Origin: a virus
Lineage: Duplodnaviria > Heunggongvirae > Uroviricota > Caudoviricetes
Strand: one strand, 5' to 3'
Length of the DNA: 39,436 nt
Virus record (IMG/VR): IMGVR_UViG_2537561944_000032
Below, piece by piece: positions 12,529-34,842 of this stretch. The stretch's first letter is position 1, and the number at the start of each line of letters is the position of its first letter. The position numbers and the translations under genes were made by a program. The notes beneath the pieces are model-generated. The model ran no database searches. It was given only the letters and a program-made list of their open reading frames with translations, and was not told the origin of the DNA.

Positions 12529-12684
12529 TTTAACGTATGTCGCCAATTTCCTGATGAAGGTGACTGGCGACTTGCTGTTGTATGTCCTTCTCAGAAAATT
12601 GTTTTTGAATAACAAACAACAGGATTTTATAATCTCTTAACCTTATAATATGTGTGGTCTGAAATAATAATTAAGGAGATTATC

Positions 12685-13257
12685 GTGCTGTCTTACTTAA
12701 TGGCAATTCACTTTGCTTTATTTGGGGACTCTACTAATTTAAAAAACTTCTGGAAATATGAAGTAATTCGGCGGAAACGTATGGATATCTGGAGGCTTTT
12801 AAGAGAGAAAAAACAGCGTAACCGGAATTTCCTTTTCTGGTGGCGGTTGGCTAACGAAATGTATATTAATGGTAATAAATTACATAAGAAAGCAGCCAAA
12901 AAGTTAAACAGTAAAATAATTAACAAATTTGGTTGTGAAATTGGATTGGGCGCAAATATTGGAAAAGGGTTAACAATTCCCCATCATGCTGGAATTGTTG
13001 TTCATTTTGCTGTTGATGCTGGTGAAAATCTGGTGTTACGACAGAATACTACCATTGGACAGATAGATGGTGACATGCCTGGTTCAAGAGTAAAAATTGG
13101 TAGTAACGTTGATATCGGAGCTAATTGTTGCATCATTGGATTATCACGTAAAATTGGGGATAATGTAAAAATAGGTGCAATGTCTTTTATAAATAAAGAT
13201 ATACCATCGAACTGCACATATATAACTAAAAAGAGCGGTGTTGTATTGTATAAATAG
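12685..13257 (+). CDS. hexapeptide-repeat (left-handed beta-helix) acetyltransferase, CysE/LacA/WcaB-like; cargo gene
   Basis: Repeated [LIV]-G-x-x-x-x-I hexapeptide units (IGKGLTIPHHAGIVV...VKIGSNVDIGANCCIIG...KIGDNVKIGAMSF); GTG start at 12685 with AAGGAG RBS (ATG at 12700 alternative); region 12570-13260 is strongly AT-rich; followed by hairpin terminator. Confidence 0.75.
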   Translation: MLSYLMAIHFALFGDSTNLKNFWKYEVIRRKRMDIWRLLREKKQRNRNFLFWWRLANEMYINGNKLHKKAAKKLNSKIINKFGCEIGLGANIGKGLTIPHHAGIVVHFAVDAGENLVLRQNTTIGQIDGDMPGSRVKIGSNVDIGANCCIIGLSRKIGDNVKIGAMSFINKDIPSNCTYITKKSGVVLYK

Positions 13258-19480: not shown

Positions 19481-21358
19481 TTACGCTGCAGGACTATTTA
19501 TTTCCAGCACCAGACTTTCTATCTCAACGCCATACGTTGCATTTTTGGTAATATCCGTCAGCGTCAGTGCATTCAGCCCCAGTGTCAGACTGTCTTTTAT
19601 GACCTGGAATGCCGGGCCAGCCACTCCATTCAGTTTCGGAGTAACCGTGGCACTGCTGGCGGTGAACACCAGCTCCAGCGTCTGCCAGTCGTTACTGTAA
19701 TTCCCGAACTCGCCCAACTTTGTGTTTCCTGCTTTCTTGTGATGCATCAGATTCAGTTTGCCGTCTGTGGTCTGGGTGAAGAACGACATCAGGAACGGGT
19801 TACCAGTCCCGGTCATCGCCACGACGTCAGGTAACGCTACATCGGTATACAGATAAATTCCCAGACCGAACTGATTGTTGGTCAGTGCGCCTGACAGGCG
19901 GAACTTACAGGTCAGTCTGCCGCCCTGTGTCAGCAGGGTAATTGCGTCATCCACCGGATGCGTCAGGGACCAGGTTTTATTGCTCTGCTTGGTGATCTTA
20001 AATACACCATCTGACAACTGAATTCCGCCATCCTTAATGCTCCAGCCCTGCGCAGCAGCCTCTCCGGCTGCCGGCAGCAGGGAGATTGTGCGAACGGACG
20101 TATCTGCAGACGGACCCGATGGCGTGTTGCCGCCGGGCGAGGGTTTGATTTCCGGTGCCTTACCACTGATGAAGGCTAAGGTGCGACCGGCTACGTTCAG
20201 AATAGCGGTTGCCATACGATCCGGAATAATGCTCCTGCGCGCCCATGAACTGAAATGCGTCTGGCGATTTGATGATACCCAGTTTTTGTTCGTTCGGGAT
20301 GCCGAACCGTAATATCCCTCACTTGCAGCATCCGGATCTTCCGTTGGTGCGTTGGTGGAGGTATTGTTGCCACTACCATCGGTCAGGAATGGCACAAAGA
20401 AAACGTTGTCGCTCTCCCTGTTTTTGTACGCCCCGTAAATGGTGTCGTACTGCGTGCCGTAGGTGTTTTTCCAGTAATACGTCGTGTCACCACAAATCCA
20501 TGGCACACTTGCCGCTCTGCCTCCATGACACTGCGTGTTAAACTCGGTAATGTCCGCACGAAACTGTTTCAGCATGGCCGCAAACAGCGGAGGTTGCTGT
20601 GAGTACGTAGCGGCGCTCATGTCAAATTCGCCCTGCATCCAGCATACGGCCAGCAGCATGTTTTTTGGGTTTTTCTGCAATGCGGCCTTCGTGCGCAAAA
20701 TCAGGTCCTGATATAAAGGTTTACCCACACCCCAGCGAGCCGAATCCTGACTGGCTCCTGTGGACTCGCTGAATGTCCCCTCCGCGCCCTGGGTGAATGC
20801 CGAACCACCACGACAGCATGGAACCAGTAAAATCCCGGCATTCTGTGGAATGTAAGGCAACAGGCGTTTGGCAATATGCAAGCCCTGTCCGACACAGCCA
20901 TACTGCCCTTTGCTCAGGTCTGCATTCGGGTGATTCAGTACGCTCATATCCTGAACATCATGCAGGCAGTGATCTGCCGGAATGATGTCGTTAAATGCGC
21001 ATGCTTTACCACCGGGAGTCACTGTGTTGCGACGGGCCAGTTGCTTAATGCGTGGGTGGGGCGCATCGTAAGAATCCGGCAGCGGCATTCCCTCACCATA
21101 TGACATGGCATTGGATTGACCAGCAAGTACCACCACGTAATACCACTCCGGCACGCTGCCGTGCTGGGGGGAATCAGGTGAGATGTCTGTAGTGCCATCG
21201 GCCACCATTGCCTGCATTAGATACCACGGGGTGCCGGGTTCGTAGGCAACCCGCGTCTCCCCCTGAAGATGCCACCCTTTCGCAAGATGTTCATTCACCT
21301 TTTGAGTCAGTTCAGCCTGTGTCATGGCTGTAATCAGTGCAAAGTTCTTACTGGTCAT
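19481..21358 (-). CDS. prophage NanS-p-like protein: N-terminal DUF1737 + SGNH-hydrolase/sialate O-acetylesterase-like domain + C-terminal beta-rich domain (625 aa); cargo gene
   Basis: N-terminus MTSKNFALITAMTQAELTQKVNEHLAKGW resembles DUF1737; VVLAGQSNAMSYG contains the GQSN motif of the DUF303/SASA esterase family; inserted between lysC and R, which are adjacent in P2. Confidence 0.7.
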   Translation of the reverse strand: MTSKNFALITAMTQAELTQKVNEHLAKGWHLQGETRVAYEPGTPWYLMQAMVADGTTDISPDSPQHGSVPEWYYVVVLAGQSNAMSYGEGMPLPDSYDAPHPRIKQLARRNTVTPGGKACAFNDIIPADHCLHDVQDMSVLNHPNADLSKGQYGCVGQGLHIAKRLLPYIPQNAGILLVPCCRGGSAFTQGAEGTFSESTGASQDSARWGVGKPLYQDLILRTKAALQKNPKNMLLAVCWMQGEFDMSAATYSQQPPLFAAMLKQFRADITEFNTQCHGGRAASVPWICGDTTYYWKNTYGTQYDTIYGAYKNRESDNVFFVPFLTDGSGNNTSTNAPTEDPDAASEGYYGSASRTNKNWVSSNRQTHFSSWARRSIIPDRMATAILNVAGRTLAFISGKAPEIKPSPGGNTPSGPSADTSVRTISLLPAAGEAAAQGWSIKDGGIQLSDGVFKITKQSNKTWSLTHPVDDAITLLTQGGRLTCKFRLSGALTNNQFGLGIYLYTDVALPDVVAMTGTGNPFLMSFFTQTTDGKLNLMHHKKAGNTKLGEFGNYSNDWQTLELVFTASSATVTPKLNGVAGPAFQVIKDSLTLGLNALTLTDITKNATYGVEIESLVLEINSPAA

Positions 21359-26324: not shown

Positions 26325-28075
26325 ATGATTCAGGACGCTTTTGTGCGCCAGCGTGCGCGGCAACTTTACTGGCAGGGTTATCCGCCCGCAGAAATATCAC
26401 GTCTGATGGGAATAAACCCGAACACGATTTATGCGTGGAAAAAACGCGACCAGTGGGATGAAACGCCACCCGTGCAGCGTGTCACGCAGTCCATCGATGC
26501 GCGCCTCATCCAGCTTACTGAAAAACAGAATAAAACAGGCGGTGACTTTAAGGAAATAGACCTGCTGACCCGGCAGCTTAAAAAACTGCATGATGGCCAG
26601 CCGGATGCGACGGTCACAGGAAAGAAAGGCCGGGCGAAAAAACTCAAAAATCATTTCACGCCGGAACAGATTGCCGCACTGCGGGAAAAAATCATCAGCA
26701 GGCTGGAGTGGCATCAGCGGGGCTGGTTTGACTCCCTGACCCTTTGCAGGGAAGCCGGGATACGTAACAGGATGATCCTGAAATCCCGACAGATTGGGGC
26801 GACCTGGTATTTTGCACAGGAAGCTCTGCTGATGGCGCTGCGTGACGATGTGGCGCAACCTTACCAGCGTAACCAGATTTTTTTGCTGCGTCGCGTCGTC
26901 AGGCGTTCCAGTTTAAAAGCATTATTCAGAAGGCCGCGGCTGAAGTTGATGTGGAGCTGAAAGGGGGCGATAAAATCATCCTCTCCAACGGCGCAGAGCT
27001 GCATTTTCTCGGCACTTCTGCTGCGTCGGCACAGTCCTATACGGGCAATTTTTATTTTGATGAATTTTTCTGGGTCAGTCGCTTTGCTGAACTGCGCAAG
27101 GTGGCTGGCGCTATGGCAACCCTCAGCGGACTGCGGCGCACCTACTTCTCCACGCCATCCACCGAAACGCACGAGGCATACGCCTACTGGAACGGCGACC
27201 GCTGGAACGAGAAAAAGGCCACGCATAAACGCCAGCGTTTTTCTGTGGACTGGAAAACGCTGCATAACGGGCTTATCTGCCCTGACCGGACGTGGCGGCA
27301 AATTGTCACGCTGGAAGATGTGGTCAATCACGGCTGGAAACACACCGATATCGACGAAATTCGTGATGAAAACACCGAAGACGAGTTCCTCAATCTCTAT
27401 ATGTGTGAGTTTGTCCGCGAAGGGGAATCGGCATTTAACCTGAATATCCTGATTGGCTGCGGTGTTGACGGATACGACGACTGGAAAGACTGGAAACCTT
27501 TTGCTCCCCGCCCGATGGGGAATCGTCCGGTATGGATTGGGTATGACGCAAACGGCAGTAGTGGCAACGGCGACAGCGGCGCTGTGTCCGTGGTGGTTCC
27601 TCCGGCTGTTCCTGGTGGCCGTTTTCGAACGGTGGAGACGCGACGCGTTCAGGGGCTGGAGTTTGAAGAACAGGCCAGAGTCATTGAAGAGTTCACGTAT
27701 CGCTACAACGTGGAACACATCGGCATTGATGTGACGGGCGGGAACGGGGAGGCTGTTTATCAGATAGTGAAACGGTTTTTCCCTGCTGCTATTCCGTACA
27801 CCTTCACGCTGTCATCAAAACGGTCGCTGGTACTGAAAATGCTGCAAATAATGCGTGCCGGGCGGTGGGAATACGATCGCGCCGAACGCGAGCTGGTCGC
27901 GGCCTTTAACGCCGTGCGTAAGGTGAAAACACCGGGCGGCTTTATCACTTACGAAACGGACCGCGCGAGGGGGATCAGCCACGGCGACCTTGCGTGGGCA
28001 ACCATGCTTGCTGTCATTAACGAACCGATTGGCGGCGAAGGAGAAAACGAGCGTTTCACGGTTATGGAGTTCTGA
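26325..28075 (+). pseudogene. P: terminase large (ATPase) subunit gpP-like, split into two frames at a T7 homopolymer (frameshifted)
   Basis: ORF 26325..26960 matches the gpP N-terminus (ARQLYWQG...LKSRQIGATWYFA...NQIFL), then runs out of frame; ORF 26951..28075 in another frame continues the gpP alignment (VELKGG...RTYFSTPST...IGYD...FRTVE). Frame break is at the T-run 26878-26884. Confidence 0.85.
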
Positions 28076-28100: not shown

Positions 28101-29120
28101 ATGAGTTCACGCATTGATCTCGCTGATGCGCTCAGGAAAGAATCATCGCTCAGTGCATTCACATTTGATGGTCCTTATCGCCTGACCGGGCATGACCTGC
28201 TGGACAATATGTACTGTGCTGATAACGGACGGTGGTATGAAACCCCGGTGGACTGGTACGGTCTGGCAAGAGCAGCCCGGCAAACGTCCTGGCATCAGTC
28301 TGCGCTTTACTTTAAGCGCAATGTATTACTCGGTTGCTACATCCCGCACCCGCTGCTTTCCCGGCAGGATTTCTCGGCGCTGGCGCTGGACTGGTTTGTG
28401 TTCGGTAACGCATTCCTTGAGCTTAGAAGCAATATGCTCGGCGAACCGCTTAAATTACGGCACGCCCTGGCGAAATACATGCGACGCGGAAGCGATCTTG
28501 AATCATGGTGGTATGTGCAGGATGGCAAGGACGCGTTCCAGTTTCGCCCTGGCAAAGTGTGCCACCTGATGAATCCGGATATTAACCAGGAAATCTACGG
28601 CATGCCGGAATATCTTGGCGCATTACTCTCGGCCAGCCTTTCTCATTCGGCGGACATGTTCAGAAAACTGTACTACGACAACGGATCCCACGCCGGGTGC
28701 ATCATCTACATCGGTGCAGCGCAGGTAAACCGCGAAAGCATGGACTCCCTGAAAGAAACGTTACAGGGCGCGCGTGGTGGTGGTGCGTTTAAAAACGTAC
28801 TCATCCATGCGCCCAACGGGGGCAAAGAAGGTGTGCAAATTTTGCCGTTCCAGCAGATCACTGCAAAGGATGAGTTCATGAATGTTAAGGCGGCATCCCG
28901 TGATGATGTGCTGGCTGCGCACCGCGTTCCGCCGCAACTGATGGGGGCGATGCCGGGCGAAAAAAGTGCGTTTGGTGATGTGGAGAAGGCCGCGCGGGTT
29001 TACGCAATTAACGAGCTGATGCCCGTTATGGAGGCCATGAAGCACATCAATGACTGGCTTGGCGAAGAGGTGATCCGCTTTAACCCTTACGCACTGCTAG
29101 ATACCCAGCCCACATCCTGA
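28101..29120 (+). CDS. Q: portal (capsid vertex) protein gpQ-like
   Basis: 339 aa from ATG 28101 (ORF opens at 27990, overlapping the end of P); downstream of P on the same strand, divergent from O as in P2. Confidence 0.85.
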   Translation: MSSRIDLADALRKESSLSAFTFDGPYRLTGHDLLDNMYCADNGRWYETPVDWYGLARAARQTSWHQSALYFKRNVLLGCYIPHPLLSRQDFSALALDWFVFGNAFLELRSNMLGEPLKLRHALAKYMRRGSDLESWWYVQDGKDAFQFRPGKVCHLMNPDINQEIYGMPEYLGALLSASLSHSADMFRKLYYDNGSHAGCIIYIGAAQVNRESMDSLKETLQGARGGGAFKNVLIHAPNGGKEGVQILPFQQITAKDEFMNVKAASRDDVLAAHRVPPQLMGAMPGEKSAFGDVEKAARVYAINELMPVMEAMKHINDWLGEEVIRFNPYALLDTQPTS

Positions 29121-29146
29121 CGCGCTTCGCTTGTCTGCTGCTTCGC

Positions 29147-29171
29147 CGGGGCATAAAAAATTTATGCCCCG
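29147..29171. terminator. perfect palindromic hairpin (bidirectional terminator candidate) downstream of Q
   Basis: ggggcataaa-aaa-tttatgcccc; 10-bp perfect arms with A/T loop. Confidence 0.6.
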
Positions 29172-29543
29172 ACTCTCCAGCTCCTGTATCAATCAGATAA
29201 TTTCACGACGCTTTTCTGCTTATTGTCATCATCGGCGGTCAGACTCTTACGCAATCCCACCGCGTTGACTGCATGTTCTCGCCGCCTCAGTGCGATTTTG
29301 ACGGCCTTATCTGCCACCCATCAAATCAAAAGCCCTCACGTCTTTTTCACGCTCAGCGTGAGAAATACAGCCATTCTGTTGTGTCGCTGCGACATCGTTC
29401 AGGGGATGCTATTTACCCCCTGAAACGCGGGCTGTTCCCCCGTCACCTGCGCGCAGAAAAAGCGCGTTTTTTTGTGCACGCACGGATCCTTGACGGATCC
29501 AGCCGCCATGCGGGCCGGAAGGGTAAAAAGTCGTTCAAAAAAA

Positions 29544-29570
29544 TTGTGCAAACTTGTGCACTATTGTGCA
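29544..29570. repeat. three tandem TTGTGCA iterons at exact 10-bp phasing
   Basis: aaaTTGTGCAaacTTGTGCActaTTGTGCA; lies in the non-coding region between Q and the Ea22-like gene, where the P2 cos site would be expected. Confidence 0.6.
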
Positions 29571-29609
29571 GCAGGGCGATGCGCGATTATCGCCCTGGTT
29601 TGAGGGGGA

Positions 29610-30200
29610 TCAGGTGTTATTTTTATCTGTCGTCAGTGGGCTAAACCATCCACGATTTACATCGCAGGACTGATGCGTTCTGTCCTCGTGTTTCTCCTGC
29701 CACAATGCTTTTCCGCCAGCCTTTATGATGGCTCTTTCAACATCCCGCTCGTATCGCAAGGGCTGAAATACGTCATTAATGAAATATTCGCTTATGTCCG
29801 GAAGCGATACTGCAAAATTATTTGTTTGTTGCGCCGTCCTGCTATGCAGCAAAGCGGCATACTTTAATGCGTCCTGTGCTTTCTGGAATTTAAGTGCATA
29901 GTCAGTGGCGATTTTTTCCAGTTCAGCGATTCGGTTGTCTTTGGTTTCCAGCCAATCAAGTAGCGCCAATACTTCAGGATCCCCGACATCCAACACTGTT
30001 ACGCGTGATTTTTCATAATGTTCGTCGGCAAGAGTTCGGCCAATTTTGAAATCTCCATCATCACCATAACCGGAGCAGGCATAAACAACCTGTGCTCCAG
30101 ATATTCGCTGAATTGACATTTCCTCGCCGCAAATAGGGCATTTCGGTACTGGCACAGGTGAATAACGTTCACGTAATGCCTGATAGTTGATTTCGCTCAT
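29610..30200 (-). CDS. hypothetical protein, Ead/Ea22-like N-terminus with CxxC...C zinc-ribbon-like motif (196 aa)
   Basis: Starts MSEINYQALRERYS...KCPICGEEMSIQRISGAQVVYACSG; AAGGAG RBS; last gene of the parM-parR-containing unit. Confidence 0.55.
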   Translation of the reverse strand: MSEINYQALRERYSPVPVPKCPICGEEMSIQRISGAQVVYACSGYGDDGDFKIGRTLADEHYEKSRVTVLDVGDPEVLALLDWLETKDNRIAELEKIATDYALKFQKAQDALKYAALLHSRTAQQTNNFAVSLPDISEYFINDVFQPLRYERDVERAIIKAGGKALWQEKHEDRTHQSCDVNRGWFSPLTTDKNNT

Positions 30201-30263
30201 TAAGTCGTTCTCCTTGTTTATGTTCTGAGGTGGAGAGCAGGGCGAACTCGCCCTGATGTTTTG

Positions 30264-30575
30264 TTATTCAGGAAATAACGCCCGGATATTTCCGGCCATC
30301 TGACTGGTTATCTGTGCGGTTGATACTGGCTGTGATGCGGGGCGTTCTGTCCTGGTTTGTGTCACTGATAACGCTTCATCACCAGCCCATGCAGCCAGTC
30401 GATAAGCCTCTGCCGGATTCATTTTCAGAAGTGCCAGCCCGGCCAGAAAAGCCACGCGTTGGCCGCTTTTGCGGGCTTCTGGTGTAAGGCTGTCCAGCCA
30501 GGCGCATGCTTCTCCTTCGTTCTTGACGGCGGTGGGCTTCAGATAGAAACTTATCCGTCTGGTTGGAGTCGTCAT
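30264..30575 (-). CDS. ParR/StbB-like centromere-binding adaptor (ribbon-helix-helix type)
   Basis: 103 aa from ATG 30575 (AAGGAG RBS, 2 nt after parM-like stop). RRISFYLKP...LDSLTPEARKSGQRVAFLAGLALL and C-terminal IRALFPE resemble plasmid R1 ParR as I recall it. Confidence 0.65.
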   Translation of the reverse strand: MTTPTRRISFYLKPTAVKNEGEACAWLDSLTPEARKSGQRVAFLAGLALLKMNPAEAYRLAAWAGDEALSVTQTRTERPASQPVSTAQITSQMAGNIRALFPE

Positions 30576-30579
30576 TGGT

Positions 30580-31539
30580 TTACTCCTTGTCCATTGCGTA
30601 CAGCCCATTAACCAGAGCAAACTGTGGCACCCCGTCCGCGATGAAAGTCGCATTAACTCCGCAGGCTTCGCGGATAGCGGGTGCCACAATCTCCGCCCCT
30701 CCACCGACAACCATCACCCGCCCGTAACCCGAAAAACCCGCCAGCGCGCGGATCACGCGTTGTTTCAGTGTTTCTTCCTTTTCACGAATAACCGCCATCA
30801 GGCTGGCGTAATGCGCGTCATTGTGGATGTGCTGGCGCAGCCAGGCTTCATCATGGCGATGTTCGATAATGGTATTGGCGATGTGGTGACTGGTGCGCAT
30901 ACCGTTAGTGGCCATCACCGACAGTACGGCATCGGCCATCAGAGAAACGCCCACGTGTGGATCGCAAAACACCTGGCTGATACCTGCCAGTTGCCCCTGA
31001 ACCTTTGCCACATCCAGAGTGGTTCCGCCCAAATCCACAATCAGCAGGGATTCAAACGGACTCATGTCAGCCAGTGCCTTAAAGCCAGCCGGAATGGATT
31101 CAGGCATAACCCGTACGTTACGGATAGTGAATGCTTCGCCGTTCTGGTACTCCACCGGGCGCATGACGTTCGCTTTTTTGCGGTTGATGTTGGCCATGTC
31201 CGGCTGTGCGTTTGTATCGAAATACTCGCTCAGTGGCAGGGTGACAACCACATCCACTTCCTGTGGTGTGATGCCTGATTTGACCAGCGCGTGATGAATG
31301 GCAATTATATTCACATCGCTGTACTGGTATTGCGTGTCGGTCGTCTGGACAAAGCGATCGCTGACCGGATCAAAACCATAGCGCACGCCATCAAGCATGT
31401 AGTTCGCGGGCTGCGTGCCACCGAACGGCGCAGACCATTCCGACTTGAAGCTGTTCGGGCTGATGGCGTTGCGGCGTTCGCCGTTCTCAGTCCATGCCAG
31501 CTTGATGTTGGTGGAGCCGTCGTCGATACAAATTTTCAT
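30580..31539 (-). CDS. ParM/StbA-like actin-family ATPase
   Basis: N-terminus MKICIDDGSTNIKLAW...ISPNSFKSEW...QYSDVNIIAIHHALVKSG closely parallels plasmid R1 ParM (FIDDGSTNIKLQW...ISPNSFKREW...QYSDVNVVAVHHALL) as I recall it; also the adjacent-Gly phosphate-binding loop DLGGTT. Confidence 0.8.
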   Translation of the reverse strand: MKICIDDGSTNIKLAWTENGERRNAISPNSFKSEWSAPFGGTQPANYMLDGVRYGFDPVSDRFVQTTDTQYQYSDVNIIAIHHALVKSGITPQEVDVVVTLPLSEYFDTNAQPDMANINRKKANVMRPVEYQNGEAFTIRNVRVMPESIPAGFKALADMSPFESLLIVDLGGTTLDVAKVQGQLAGISQVFCDPHVGVSLMADAVLSVMATNGMRTSHHIANTIIEHRHDEAWLRQHIHNDAHYASLMAVIREKEETLKQRVIRALAGFSGYGRVMVVGGGAEIVAPAIREACGVNATFIADGVPQFALVNGLYAMDKE

Positions 31540-31574
31540 GTCGCTTTTCCTTGTGTTGATTAATTAATCGGTTA

Positions 31575-31685
31575 CAGGATTTTTAAATCCCGCTTTTGCC
31601 TGTTTTGTGCGCGCTTCATATATCGCGGCACGTTTTTTGCTCATTTACGGGATTTGTGAGTCCCGTTTCTGTCTGTTTTTTGTTT
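31575..31685. repeat. two copies of a 35-40 bp direct repeat containing a short palindrome, spanning the 3' end of gene A and the parM upstream region
   Basis: acaggatttttaaatcccgcttttgcctgttttgtg (31575-31610) versus acgggatttgtgagtcccgtttctgtctgttttttg (31645-31680), about 80% identical. Confidence 0.4.
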
Positions 31686-34456
31686 CCACTGGTCAGGCTA
31701 CCCCGCAGCAGGTCTGCTTTGCGGTGGGCGCGTTCAGTGGTTTCACTGATTCTCTGTGCGTGCACTGCGTCACGGATGGCGCGCAGCATGTCAGAAAGCA
31801 CGGTAACGGGGGTTTTCATGGTGTTCTGGTCCTGCTGAAGTGTGGATGCCAGGTGTGCGGCGGCTTCGGGGTCTGATGCCCCCAGCTGTTCCAGATAGCT
31901 GGCGACCGGGTTATGGCGGATCTCCGTGCTGCTTACGCCGTGATTACGGCTCAGGCGCTGCCAGAGTTGCGTGATTCGGCTGTCCGGGCGGGTATCTGGT
32001 TTGCGTACAATTTCAAATCCCTGCGGTGCAATGATGCTGCCGTCAACGTACAGACTGCCGCCCCGTAACAGGTGCTGCATCTGCTGTTCACCGATATGCA
32101 GGCCGAGAGATTCAGCAGACTCCCGCCATTCTTTAGCGAGTAACTCGTGATTATCAGGCAAAGGCCGTGGCTGTTTGCGGCTCTGTGTCCAGTTCTGCAT
32201 TTCATCACTGCTGTTTTTTGCCTGTTTGTCACGCAGCGAACGCATCAGCGCCCGGCGTTCGTGCCGTTTCAGTGAGCGCATCCATTCATTCACGTCAACG
32301 CCGTCAGGAAGCTGCGGCCACGGTGCTGGCCTTTCTTCCGGCTGTTCTGTCCCGTTGTTGTCCGTTTCCTGTACACGGGGACAGTTATTGCCACGAGTCC
32401 AAGGGGCGGCAGGGCCGCCCTGAAGGTCAAAACCATTTTCGCGGGTGCTGTCTTCCGCTTCCGGTTTACGTCTTACCAGCTTCCAGTTATCCGGGTGCGT
32501 GCACACACGGGAGGATTCCCCGATGAGTGGTGACCAGATCCCGTAAATCTGTACGCTCTGTTCGCCGTAATCGTTCAGCTCATCTGCGAGGTCGTAGGCG
32601 GTGCGAATCAGGTAGTCTTTGCGTGGAACAAGTACGCCGCCCTGTTTCTCAATGTAGGTGGCAAAACACCCGGCATCAGCGGCAGCGAGTACCGCATCCA
32701 TTGCATCATCCTTCAGCCGTTGTGGGCCTTCCGGGTTGCGTGCCATCTGGCTGGCAAGGCGGCGGAGTTCACGCCATACCTGACGGGAGGGGATGCCAAA
32801 GAACTGGAACTGGCGGACCCGGTGAAGGCGTGCCCAGCCGATGGCGCGTTCCACGCTCTCGGCCATTGATTTTCCGGTTTCGTGGTCAACGCGTGGCTTG
32901 CCCGTTTTCGGGTCGATGCCATCCACGGCGCGGCTGTCCAGGTTCTTTCCGATGTAGGTGGCGATGTAGCTGGTTGGCGTGCCTTTTGAGCCGTCGACAT
33001 ACTCCACCTTAAAGCGCGGAGTAATATCATTGCCCAGCTCGTGGCGGTCTTCCTGAATGGCAATATCGCGGGTGTGGGACACAATGGTGTCGATTTCTTC
33101 CGGATGAGCAAAGACCATCATATGCCAGTGCACGGTGCCGTCATGGTGAGGCTCCACCGTGCGGATGCCATACCAGCGCAGGCCGTCGCGGTTCAGTTTC
33201 TTGCGGACCGCCGCAAAAAACGTGTTAACCAGGTAATCGCTGGAGTCGCGCATGGTGGCCCCGTTCCATTTGGGATTCGGATGACCGTTCTCTGTTGTGG
33301 CGTGGTATTTTGACGGGCAGGTGACAGTCAGAAACACCGCTCTGTCGCCACGGGCTTCGGCCAGAAGTTCCAGCCCCTTCATGGTGGCCATCATTTCTGC
33401 CTTACGGTGAATCGGGTTACTTACTCCCGCGTAATACACTGTCTCGAGATCAATCGTGAACCCGTCTTCGTTTTCCAGCATGAAACTTTTCAGGAAATCG
33501 CGTGTTTTCTCGCGCTGTGCGCGAAACTCGCTTAACGCGTCCTGGCTCAGATAGGGTGATGTTTTTCTGGAAACCAGACAGGCGGCGCGGAGTTGTTCTT
33601 CTCTCCACTCGCAACGTAACAGCCACAGTTTGCGTTTCCACCATTCCGCACAGGTCAGGCGAAGGATTGCGCCCGGCAGCAGCTCCGTGTCCGGTTCATT
33701 CCTCCGGTCTTTGTCTGTTGTCAGAGCGTCATAATGTGGAGGCATAGCGTGCAGGTGTAACGCCATGCGGGCCAGCATCTGATACGCCTTCAGCGTTACA
33801 TCCATGGTCAGCTCGCCATCGGTCGCGCCAAAGCCATCGCAGAGTTTTTCAAAAGTGCCACTGAACATCGCCGCCGTCATGGTGGCCAGCGTCTGTATCT
33901 GGTGTTTGTTGAGCTGCGGCAGGTAAAGCAAATCGTCCAGGCGTTCGCGTCCGGCAAGGGAGCGATAGCCCGGTGTCAGCCAGCGGCTGTCGGTGCGGTC
34001 CAGACGTTCGAATATTTTGCGCAGGGTTCCGCGCGCGTAGCGTTCAGCCTGCCAGCTCTTTTTGCCTTTCTGACGATCGGCTTCCTGCTTCTTGCGCAGA
34101 AAAGAGAGGTGGCGGCTCAGAGGTTCACGCAGATAAACGGGAAGCACCTTCAGTGTGGCAAAAGCACGGGCCACCGGGTCTTGTTCTGTTGCCTGACGCT
34201 TGCTGATGATGCTTTGTGCCAGCTTTTCACGCTGTCCGGCTTCCTCAAGGGATGCCATGAGTTTTTTACCCACGGTGGATTGTGCGAAAAAGGCTTCTTC
34301 CTTCGCTTCCTGTTCTTCCTGTGCCCTTTTGTTTGCCTCAAGGTAGTAACGGATGGCGCGTTGCAGGTCGGTTTCAGTTTCCTGCCTGCGCTCCGTAAAT
34401 CTGGCCGGATCAATGGCTGGCCGTGGTTCATTCCAGCTCCATGCAAACGCACTCAT
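31616..34456 (-). CDS. A: replication initiation endonuclease gpA-like (rolling-circle HUH nickase)
   Basis: About 946 aa; HUH motif GTVHWHMMVFAH and paired catalytic tyrosines SYIATYIGK; ATG 34456 in ATGA overlap with upstream ORF (GTG 34483 alternative). Confidence 0.85.
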   Translation of the reverse strand: MSAFAWSWNEPRPAIDPARFTERRQETETDLQRAIRYYLEANKRAQEEQEAKEEAFFAQSTVGKKLMASLEEAGQREKLAQSIISKRQATEQDPVARAFATLKVLPVYLREPLSRHLSFLRKKQEADRQKGKKSWQAERYARGTLRKIFERLDRTDSRWLTPGYRSLAGRERLDDLLYLPQLNKHQIQTLATMTAAMFSGTFEKLCDGFGATDGELTMDVTLKAYQMLARMALHLHAMPPHYDALTTDKDRRNEPDTELLPGAILRLTCAEWWKRKLWLLRCEWREEQLRAACLVSRKTSPYLSQDALSEFRAQREKTRDFLKSFMLENEDGFTIDLETVYYAGVSNPIHRKAEMMATMKGLELLAEARGDRAVFLTVTCPSKYHATTENGHPNPKWNGATMRDSSDYLVNTFFAAVRKKLNRDGLRWYGIRTVEPHHDGTVHWHMMVFAHPEEIDTIVSHTRDIAIQEDRHELGNDITPRFKVEYVDGSKGTPTSYIATYIGKNLDSRAVDGIDPKTGKPRVDHETGKSMAESVERAIGWARLHRVRQFQFFGIPSRQVWRELRRLASQMARNPEGPQRLKDDAMDAVLAAADAGCFATYIEKQGGVLVPRKDYLIRTAYDLADELNDYGEQSVQIYGIWSPLIGESSRVCTHPDNWKLVRRKPEAEDSTRENGFDLQGGPAAPWTRGNNCPRVQETDNNGTEQPEERPAPWPQLPDGVDVNEWMRSLKRHERRALMRSLRDKQAKNSSDEMQNWTQSRKQPRPLPDNHELLAKEWRESAESLGLHIGEQQMQHLLRGGSLYVDGSIIAPQGFEIVRKPDTRPDSRITQLWQRLSRNHGVSSTEIRHNPVASYLEQLGASDPEAAAHLASTLQQDQNTMKTPVTVLSDMLRAIRDAVHAQRISETTERAHRKADLLRGSLTSGNKKQTETGLTNPVNEQKTCRDI

Positions 34457-34842
34457 GGCTGGTATCCCGTCACGCGCTGCCACTCCTGTGAGAAGAGGGC
34501 GGAAAGGCGGTTAAATTCAGCGGAGTATTCACTCAGCGAGGCACACCCGCCAGCAGTGCGATGCGCCAGCATTGCCGCAAATATGGAGGCCGGGGAGTCG
34601 TAATACGCCAGCAGTGATTCGCCGTGTGGTGTCAGGCAGTGCAACGCCAGCCCGTGTGGTGTGAAGTCCACGCGGTAGCAGTCGTCTACTGTGAAATAAA
34701 GGGTGTCTGCATTCTCCGGTTTTGTGGTGCGTGCTCTGTTGTCACGACCACGGATGTAGAGATCAAATAATCCCTGAAGAACGGGAGCCAGACGGGTGTC
34801 CTGTGTGCGCACCCATCTTGTGAAGTCATGAGCGTCAATCAT
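34453..34842 (-). CDS. hypothetical early protein (129 aa)
   Basis: ORF translationally coupled to gene A (ATGA overlap); no family recognised. Confidence 0.5.
   Translation of the reverse strand: MIDAHDFTRWVRTQDTRLAPVLQGLFDLYIRGRDNRARTTKPENADTLYFTVDDCYRVDFTPHGLALHCLTPHGESLLAYYDSPASIFAAMLAHRTAGGCASLSEYSAEFNRLSALFSQEWQRVTGYQP

Follow-up and report, generated by a model that had tools for sequence, protein, structure and literature searches.

The 39,436-nucleotide stretch of DNA analyzed here (virus record IMGVR_UViG_2537561944_000032; hereinafter, the window) is a P88-type prophage of the P2 family from Escherichia coli which, between the replication gene A and the cos/portal end, encodes an actin-like ATPase, ParM, and a small ParR-like adaptor (together, parMR). 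This gene pair is a near-constant part of the backbone of the P88-like lineage rather than variable cargo and, judging from the relationships between the protein sequences, is old in the P2-like phage family rather than a recent capture from a plasmid. On balance, parMR is probably a complete, functional type II (ParMRC-like) segregation module of this backbone that acts on transiently extrachromosomal circles of the phage genome. It is not evident why a phage that integrates should need the centromere machinery of a plasmid, and yet the module evolves under strong purifying selection. It is present in at least five enterobacterial genera and in roughly 1 in 4 complete E. coli genomes, including those of major pathogen lineages.

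That P2-like phages contain a partition system, and the idea that this system serves plasmid maintenance, are already known. In a survey of the A-Q interval across 18,150 P2-like loci, a "putative plasmid partitioning system" was detected in about a quarter of the P2-like phages; this exact trio of proteins (ParM, ParR and an Ea22-like protein) is listed there and a role in plasmid maintenance is suggested, the main text mentioning neither Ea22 nor ParM and reporting no anti-phage test of this arrangement (Rousset et al., 2022; PMC9122126). New here are the fixation of the module in one lineage of the replication endonuclease GpA and the boundaries of the module, with the left edge inside gene A, along with a phage-specific ParM clade that spans five genera, a conserved two-site candidate for parC, and the separation of the Ea22-like cargo and of a set of TTGTGCA repeats from the par module.

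The parMR genes and their products

Positions 29100-31700 of the window match the chromosome of E. coli O26:H11 str. 11368 without a single difference (100% identity), and across 30 kb of the window the identity to the prophage of that strain is 99.97%. The 11368 element encodes an integrase and is chromosomal, adjoining yecA. The first-pass annotation had placed genes for a ParM-like ATPase, a ParR-like adaptor and an Ea22-like protein between gene A and the cos/portal end. Three open reading frames (ORFs) are indeed found on the minus strand at the coordinates given below, this placement is correct, and the RefSeq annotation of 11368 agrees with it: the three products are named plasmid segregation protein ParM, plasmid partitioning/stability family protein and ead/Ea22-like family protein, and the trio lies between the genes for the replication endonuclease (GpA) and the portal protein of the phage. 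Gene A and the two par genes are as follows (lengths in amino acids, aa):

31616..34483, minus strand: gene A, GpA rolling-circle replication endonuclease (PF05840, 8.9e-130)
30580..31539, minus strand: parM, actin-like (ASKHA) segregation ATPase of 319 aa, with Pfam and R1 ParM structure matches
30264..30575, minus strand: parR, adaptor of 103 aa (PF10784, phrog_2515)

The identity of the 319-aa protein as ParM is borne out by profile searches, in which it matches PF06406 (3.7e-82), PF21523 (1.3e-68) and PHROG 691; in an NCBIfam search, the ParM matches are sub-threshold only. The protein aligns with the R1 ParM structures 1mwk, 5aey and 4a62 at about 1e-92 over residues 2-316 (1.2e-92 for the 1mwk chain), and the nucleotide-binding motifs are retained in this alignment (DDGSTNIKL, PESIPAG, DLGGTTLD and GGGAE). 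ParM is under strong purifying selection, with a ratio of nonsynonymous to synonymous substitution rates (dN/dS) of 0.02-0.1 and a single pair at 0.2. Within Escherichia, the identity among the ParM proteins is 91-100%. Plasmid ParMs are no more than 52% identical to the phage protein.

The assignment of the 103-aa protein to the ParR/StbB-like adaptors likewise stands: it matches PF10784 (Plasmid_stab_B) with 3.1e-23 and phrog_2515 with 1.7e-57. The parR ATG lies 4 nt past the parM stop codon. The sequence AAGGAG, which had been put 2 nt after this stop, actually precedes the TAA: it occupies 30588-30583, the two final sense codons of parM, and is separated from the parR ATG by 7 nt. Across 27 ParR alleles, residues 1-66 form a conserved N-terminal domain and residues 67-95 a hypervariable linker, which is followed by a C-terminal tail, NIRALFPE, each residue of which is invariant or nearly so. 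The tail aligns with the C-termini of plasmid ParRs that are encoded beside ParM (...NIKNLFPDDE and ...NAENMFGDD), and R1 ParR ends in a similar tail in the same alignment. By this correspondence, the tail is predicted to be the ParM-binding peptide. The N-terminal RRISFYLKP is conserved as well and presumably occupies the position of the DNA-reading strand of ribbon-helix-helix proteins. The dN/dS of ParR is 0.1-0.37, that is, the selection is weaker than in ParM, because of the hypervariable linker. Within Escherichia, there are many ParR alleles with 52-97% identity; the allele of O157:H7 and ST131 diverges past residue 17, with the C-terminal tail and the DNA sites described below unchanged.

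As a single sequence, ParR has no sequence match in the PDB. The best PDB match of the profile made from the 27 alleles is ParR (StbB) of plasmid pB171 (2jd3), in the N-terminal domain (residues 8-71 against 10-71); the match is marginal (E-value of 0.016), and the fold is not supported by the model of the monomer.

The order of the elements, candidate centromere/promoter, parM and parR, is that of the ParMRC system of plasmids R1 and NR1 (parM/stbA, parR/stbB, parC). The phage module resembles this system further in the full-length match and the catalytic motifs of ParM, which contains both domains, and in its small ParR, encoded directly downstream and assigned to the same Pfam family. Unlike ParMRC, it is carried by an integrating P2-family prophage, its ParM belongs to a separate phage clade, and its ParR is shorter than the plasmid ParRs (103 compared to 117-140 aa).

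Distribution of parMR among P2-like phages

In the phage collection, ParM is encoded in 14 records that represent ten distinct P88-like phages (Xuanwuvirus) of Escherichia and Citrobacter. GpA with at least 86% identity to that of the window occurs in exactly the same 14 records, whereas in the other 370 P2-family records GpA is less than 60% identical and there is no ParM. A ParM that is 47% identical to that of the window is also encoded by the 91-kb E. coli phage D6, a P1-like plasmid prophage. Among 5426 complete E. coli genomes, 1279 (23.6%) contain parM and 1355 contain the P88-type gene A, such that approximately 94% of the genomes with the P88-type GpA also carry parM, the counts being made at the level of genomes rather than loci. 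The first-pass annotation regarded the cassette as an unexpected accessory and named, as the opposite possibility, a cassette conserved in the replication module of the lineage; for parMR, the presence in 14 of 14 phage records with the P88-type GpA, the absence from the other 370 and the frequency in complete genomes correspond to the latter. The system is the same one described by Rousset et al. (2022; PMC9122126), but is counted there as variable content of a hotspot, whereas here it is fixed together with one GpA lineage, is accompanied by conserved cis sites, and is followed by the true variable slot, downstream of parR. In the PhiSM paper, the gene is listed as fitness cargo (PMC6456863).

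In the P88-type GpA, residues 812-955 (window positions 31616-32050) form a C-terminal extension of about 140 residues that has no counterpart in the other 370 P2-family GpA matches, the alignments of which end near residue 811-817. The boundaries of the par module can be placed owing to a case in which it is missing. In E. coli FDAARGOS_1285, GpA is 94.7% identical over residues 287-939 and is followed by genes for an AAA ATPase and a Dam methylase; similarity to the window is lost at 29570 and returns at 31716. The last ~33 codons of gene A lie within the block that was exchanged along with parMR, and the last ~16 residues of the protein are altered where parMR is absent. The par module thus extends over the end of gene A, together with the two repeats upstream of parM (see below).

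Outside Escherichia, the nearest ParMs are those of Hafnia and Plesiomonas (62% identity), Serratia (58%) and Enterobacter (54%). In all these genera, parM is located between the GpA and portal genes of P2-like prophages and is followed by a gene for a PF10784 protein and then by variable cargo. In a neighbor-joining tree, the phage ParMs form a single clade apart from the ParMs of IncF, IncI and other plasmids; two homologs with about 50% identity come from plasmid or integrative and conjugative element contexts. Given this separate clade and the limited similarity to plasmid ParMs, the module is an old component of the P2-like phage family and not a recent acquisition from plasmids. These divergent relatives were found by protein search and contig look-up; a scan of the genome contigs returned only three near-identical loci, in E. 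albertii, Salmonella and "Vagococcus". The last of these, in an assembly labeled as a Vagococcus sp., a Gram-positive genus, is 98% identical at the parM locus (NZ_JBQPOM010000071.1) and probably reflects contamination or mislabeling.

A decayed P2-like remnant in E. coli O157:H7 TW14359 (NC_013008.1, 2503417-2512594) retains A, parM and parR as intact ORFs; next to parR are an IS3 element and tail genes, and head genes are absent from the stretch.

These patterns bear on the possibility that parMR is a relic, without a function, of plasmid genes captured long ago. The module is missing from some P88-type prophages, and the terminase gene of the prophage in the window is frameshifted. However, ParM evolves under the strong purifying selection described above, the par ORFs are intact even in the decayed O157:H7 remnant, and the module is conserved with its cis sites in five genera, which makes a relic hardly credible. 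In the order of likelihood of the rival explanations, it comes last, after plasmid maintenance, coupling to GpA, and exclusion or incompatibility.

Candidate centromere and proposed mode of action

Two direct repeats upstream of parM had been proposed as centromere-like elements. The repeats are real: they are 38 nt long, 79% identical and 73 nt apart, at 31572-31609 and 31645-31682. The first copy of the pair, 31645-31682, lies within the last codons of gene A and is not intergenic. Each repeat holds a 20-bp palindrome of the form ACGGGAyT-N4-AATCCCGT. The elements upstream of parM are:

31647..31666, no strand: parC-like site 1, palindrome ACGGGACTCACAAATCCCGT, core of the repeat 31645-31682; 126 nt upstream of the parM ATG, inside the end of gene A
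31574..31593, no strand: parC-like site 2, palindrome GCGGGATTTAAAAATCCTGT, core of the repeat 31572-31609; 53 nt upstream of the parM ATG
31544..31564, minus strand: inferred parM promoter and ribosome-binding site, with a putative -10 element ATTAAT at 31564-31559 and a Shine-Dalgarno sequence AAGGA at 31552-31548

In most relatives, site 2 has the perfect form ACGGGATTTCAGAATCCCGT. Within the 39-kb window, these two sites are the only close matches to the palindrome (1 and 2 mismatches), compared to a chance expectation of 0.16 matches; a further match, with 3 mismatches, is located at 12619-12638. The palindromes are kept in all nine aligned relatives from Escherichia and Citrobacter, including those with the divergent ParR allele. 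Equivalent pairs of sites are found upstream of parM at -129/-56 in Hafnia and -132/-60 in Plesiomonas (-126/-53 in E. coli), with a loose motif that occurs elsewhere about once per 5.6 kb per strand. The two-site layout recurs alongside a ParM of only 62% identity, which makes the upstream repeats a credible candidate for a parC-like centromere or operator, and the original proposal is sound in this respect. Attribution of the two sites to GpA or to the origin instead of par was considered and rejected: in E. coli FDAARGOS_1285, which retains the same GpA, both sites are lost along with parMR.

Downstream of site 2, the sequence ATTAATCAA is conserved in E. coli, Hafnia and Plesiomonas. It could contain the -10 element of the parM promoter, in which case the -35 element, 17 nt upstream, would sit inside site 2; such an overlap would provide for autoregulation of the kind known for R1.

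The conservation of these sites is also relevant to the suggestion that the cassette functions in phage exclusion or, more generally, that it is a weapon of exclusion or incompatibility directed against superinfecting relatives or ParMRC plasmids. The A-Q interval is a documented hotspot of anti-phage genes (PMC9122126), and ParR exists as many alleles with a hypervariable middle part. Nevertheless, none of the three proteins has a match among the PADLOC models (E <= 1), parMR is fixed in the lineage rather than variable, and the presumed specificity parts of ParR and the DNA sites are conserved rather than diversifying. Furthermore, plasmid ParMs share at most 52% identity with the phage protein, and in the two plasmids that were compared (IncI and IncF) the parC region appears to be unrelated. 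The tin and old genes of P2 occupy the same interval, from gene A to the cos/portal end (PMC9122126), but these are variable exclusion genes, whereas parMR is constant within its lineage and matches no defense family; of the three genes, only the Ea22-like one resembles cargo. A role in such conflicts therefore seems very improbable.

Where the module would act depends on the state of the phage genome. In the 5426 complete E. coli genomes, 1441 of the 1443 copies of parM are chromosomal; hence, stable plasmid life is not the norm, contrary to the episomal lifestyle that had been offered as an explanation, and carriage by a low-copy plasmid, which is typical of ParMRC, does not apply to this element, which encodes an integrase and adjoins yecA. 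The case that P88-like phages persist over the long term as low-copy plasmids instead of integrating draws on the complete ParMRC set, on the 47% identical ParM of D6, and on a circular P88-like genome that is on record as a plasmid. The latter, NZ_CP148288.1 in PLSDB (34,461 bp), is a complete P88-like genome from E. coli of a cat, deposited as a non-mobilizable plasmid; it contains the integrase, cox, repressor and parMR genes and could be either an excised replicating form or a true episome. It encodes an integrase itself and may be the former; phages that share its integrase region are located in the chromosome in 308 genomes. Moreover, there is no plasmid-type replicon beside the module, the replication gene being that of GpA. 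In P2, rolling-circle replication by GpA belongs to the lytic program. All the phages possess an integrase and att sites, and PhiSM integrates at pdxB (PMC6456863). Thus, the plasmid-maintenance role proposed by Rousset et al. (PMC9122126), in the sense of a stable plasmid prophage, is improbable in the face of the nearly exclusive chromosomal location.

A different possibility is that ParM and ParR act on or with the GpA endonuclease, in nicking or in the organization of rolling-circle replication, and not in partition. The module abuts gene A and its left boundary falls within the A coding sequence, with the terminal residues rewritten; site 1 lies within A; and GpA possesses the lineage-specific extension 812-955. 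The relaxase TraI and GpA both belong to the HUH class of endonucleases. As regards the prophage systems with which parMR can be compared, AlpC is a distant actin-like protein from a Gram-positive host and an unrelated phage. R1 ParM and ParR bind and stimulate TraI (PMC4949242). In the Corynebacterium glutamicum prophage CGP3 (AlpA/AlpC/alpS), which is integrated, an actin-like ATPase and its co-transcribed adaptor form a system in which the adaptor binds the upstream region of its own operon and links circular phage DNA to the filaments (PMC4446434, PMC5539076), and AlpAC is required for efficient replication of the excised prophage (PMC4446434). The likeness to the E. coli module is one of functional analogy only, namely an actin-like protein and an adaptor encoded by an integrated prophage, with candidate adaptor sites upstream; a replication role of the E. 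coli module, unlike that of AlpAC, is putative. Against direct action on GpA, the GpA of FDAARGOS_1285 is the same, with the extension present up to residue 939, but parMR is absent, and accordingly GpA does not require the module. Other genes intervene between A and parM in Hafnia and Enterobacter, and there is no direct sign of an interaction between GpA and ParMR. A purely GpA-directed function is accordingly about as hard to defend as long-term plasmid life, after which it ranks. Possible, albeit doubtful, is a broader proposal under which P2-family phages of enterobacteria employ an actin-like cytoskeleton of their own while extrachromosomal. The ParR-parC complex at the 3' end of gene A would hand the products of rolling-circle replication by GpA over to ParM filaments, or else would stimulate GpA as R1 ParMR does TraI; parMR would then be a replication and propagation factor, a Gram-negative counterpart of AlpAC, and not a device for plasmid maintenance. 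It would be at work in prophages that roughly one in four E. coli strains carry, O157 and O26 enterohemorrhagic E. coli and ST131 among them.

The reading that we favor remains that of a segregation module for free phage genomes. The substrate would most likely be the transiently extrachromosomal genome because the prophage is almost always integrated: either after infection and before integration, or after excision, during rolling-circle replication driven by GpA, as in the case of AlpAC and CGP3. Dimers of ParR would bind the two palindromes, which lie on either side of the gene A stop codon and overlap with the putative parM promoter, and this binding would both repress the operon and build the centromere complex. 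The NIRALFPE tail of ParR would then capture the ends of ATP-bound ParM filaments, and growth of a filament between two ParR-bound circles of phage DNA would push the circles apart. The benefit would be that the circles are distributed or positioned such that a copy is inherited by both daughter cells.

Several observations weigh against this scenario. The AlphaFold model of the ParR monomer is poor (predicted local distance difference test score of 58.7), with helices at 20-29 and 32-52 and no strand, and Foldseek found no structural match for this low-confidence model, the hits being meaningless. There are only two candidate ParR sites, and these are palindromic, unlike the iterons of R1, in which parC consists of ten direct iterons arranged as two sets of five 11-bp repeats; the pair of 20-bp palindromes, spaced 73 bp apart, may simply serve as an operator, so that centromere function is not assured. 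In the Serratia/Enterobacter subclade, the upstream layout differs and includes another long inverted repeat. A consensus scan of the coding strand from A to parM detected no strong sigma-70 promoter and no terminator. Literature searches found no experiment or functional study on any P2-family ParMR. Finally, P2-type phages that lack parMR do well, so any benefit may be minor or limited to certain conditions.

Knowledge of what parMR does would reveal whether an episomal stage with active segregation is a regular part of the life of temperate phages; such a stage bears on the establishment of lysogeny, on pseudolysogeny, and on transduction and the loss of prophages. As phages that plate on E. 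coli K-12, P88 and PhiSM would offer a tractable phage-cytoskeleton system.

The variable slot and other features of the window

Downstream of parR, the region toward cos contains two further features:

29610..30200, minus strand: Ead/Ea22-like cargo gene, 196 aa (PF13935, 1.1e-31)
29544..29570, plus strand: three TTGTGCA copies in 10-bp phase, at 29544, 29554 and 29564, in the cos-proximal backbone

The Ea22-like identity of the 196-aa protein holds, with a PF13935 match of 110.7 bits, compared to a cut-off of 27, over residues 2-140. The zinc-ribbon signal that had been ascribed to it amounts to C21-x2-C24 and C42 only, and the zinc-ribbon Pfam matches are sub-threshold (E-values of 0.014-0.12); the protein has no sequence relative in the PDB. 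Its N-terminal 120-138 aa are about 51% identical to Ead/Ea22 of ES18, ST64B and D6, whereas no relationship to other Ea22 proteins is seen in the C-terminal ~60 aa, and the full-length protein is found elsewhere only in P884B11. The likeness to Ea22 of lambda and Stx phages (PMC7093339, PMC10834534) is confined to the PF13935 part, and the latter proteins are encoded in the exo-xis region rather than in a P2-type hotspot.

The three genes had been described as a co-directional unit, but a comparison with eight relatives isolates the Ea22-like gene as swappable. On the cos side, homology ends at 29570/29571, and it resumes at 30212-30269, in the region of the parR stop, in phages that share this ParR type. 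The variable slot, 29571-30263, thus spans about 0.7 kb between parR and the TTGTGCA repeats, and the entire Ea22-like gene lies inside it. The slot is occupied by the Ea22-like gene in the window and in P884B11, by genes for a ClpX-type zinc finger protein and a second ORF (DUF7446) in P88, by an opposite-strand ORF of 268 aa in Chuche, by memP in PhiSM, by an 89-aa ORF in 520873, and by DUF3800, DUF4760 or nothing in other E. coli prophages. Given that the content of the slot differs from phage to phage, the Ea22-like gene is independent cargo and not part of the par module, and it should be judged separately from parMR. The gene is bracketed by hairpins at 30238-30255 and 29571-29596 with the same stem, CAGGGCGA...TCGCCCTG, a pair that may be a trace of cassette exchange; the hairpin upstream of the gene reads as a terminator for the plus strand only.

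The phased TTGTGCA copies, which the first-pass annotation had proposed as a second set of centromere-like iterons, are real and are accompanied by a fourth copy 72 bp away (29472-29478). The proposed centromere role does not hold: the repeats are not par-specific because they are present in phages without par genes, namely Gemsvirus 500465-2 and E. coli FDAARGOS_1285. They mark the right edge of the variable slot and could be a cos-accessory or regulator binding site. The ori and cos sequences of P2 have no match in the window within 3 mismatches.

The gene for the terminase large subunit is broken into two ORFs (26325-26960 and 26951-28075; window 26325-28075) by a 1-nt deletion at 26886 relative to the prophage of O26:H11 str. 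11368; the copy in the window may be unable to package DNA, or the deletion may be a sequencing error. Other likely cargo includes the gene for a 625-aa DUF6645 protein at ~19481-21358, with the lysis genes on one side and the tail genes on the other, and a serine O-acetyltransferase gene at ~12685-13257, beside the tail-fiber genes in a stretch of low GC content (0.42-0.43), the coordinates of both being carried over from the 11368 annotation. At 949-1069, the window contains 121 bp that are identical to the sequence located just past the integrase gene in 11368 (positions 30445-30565 of the compared stretch, L001), which looks like a duplication of the attachment site at the other end of the prophage.

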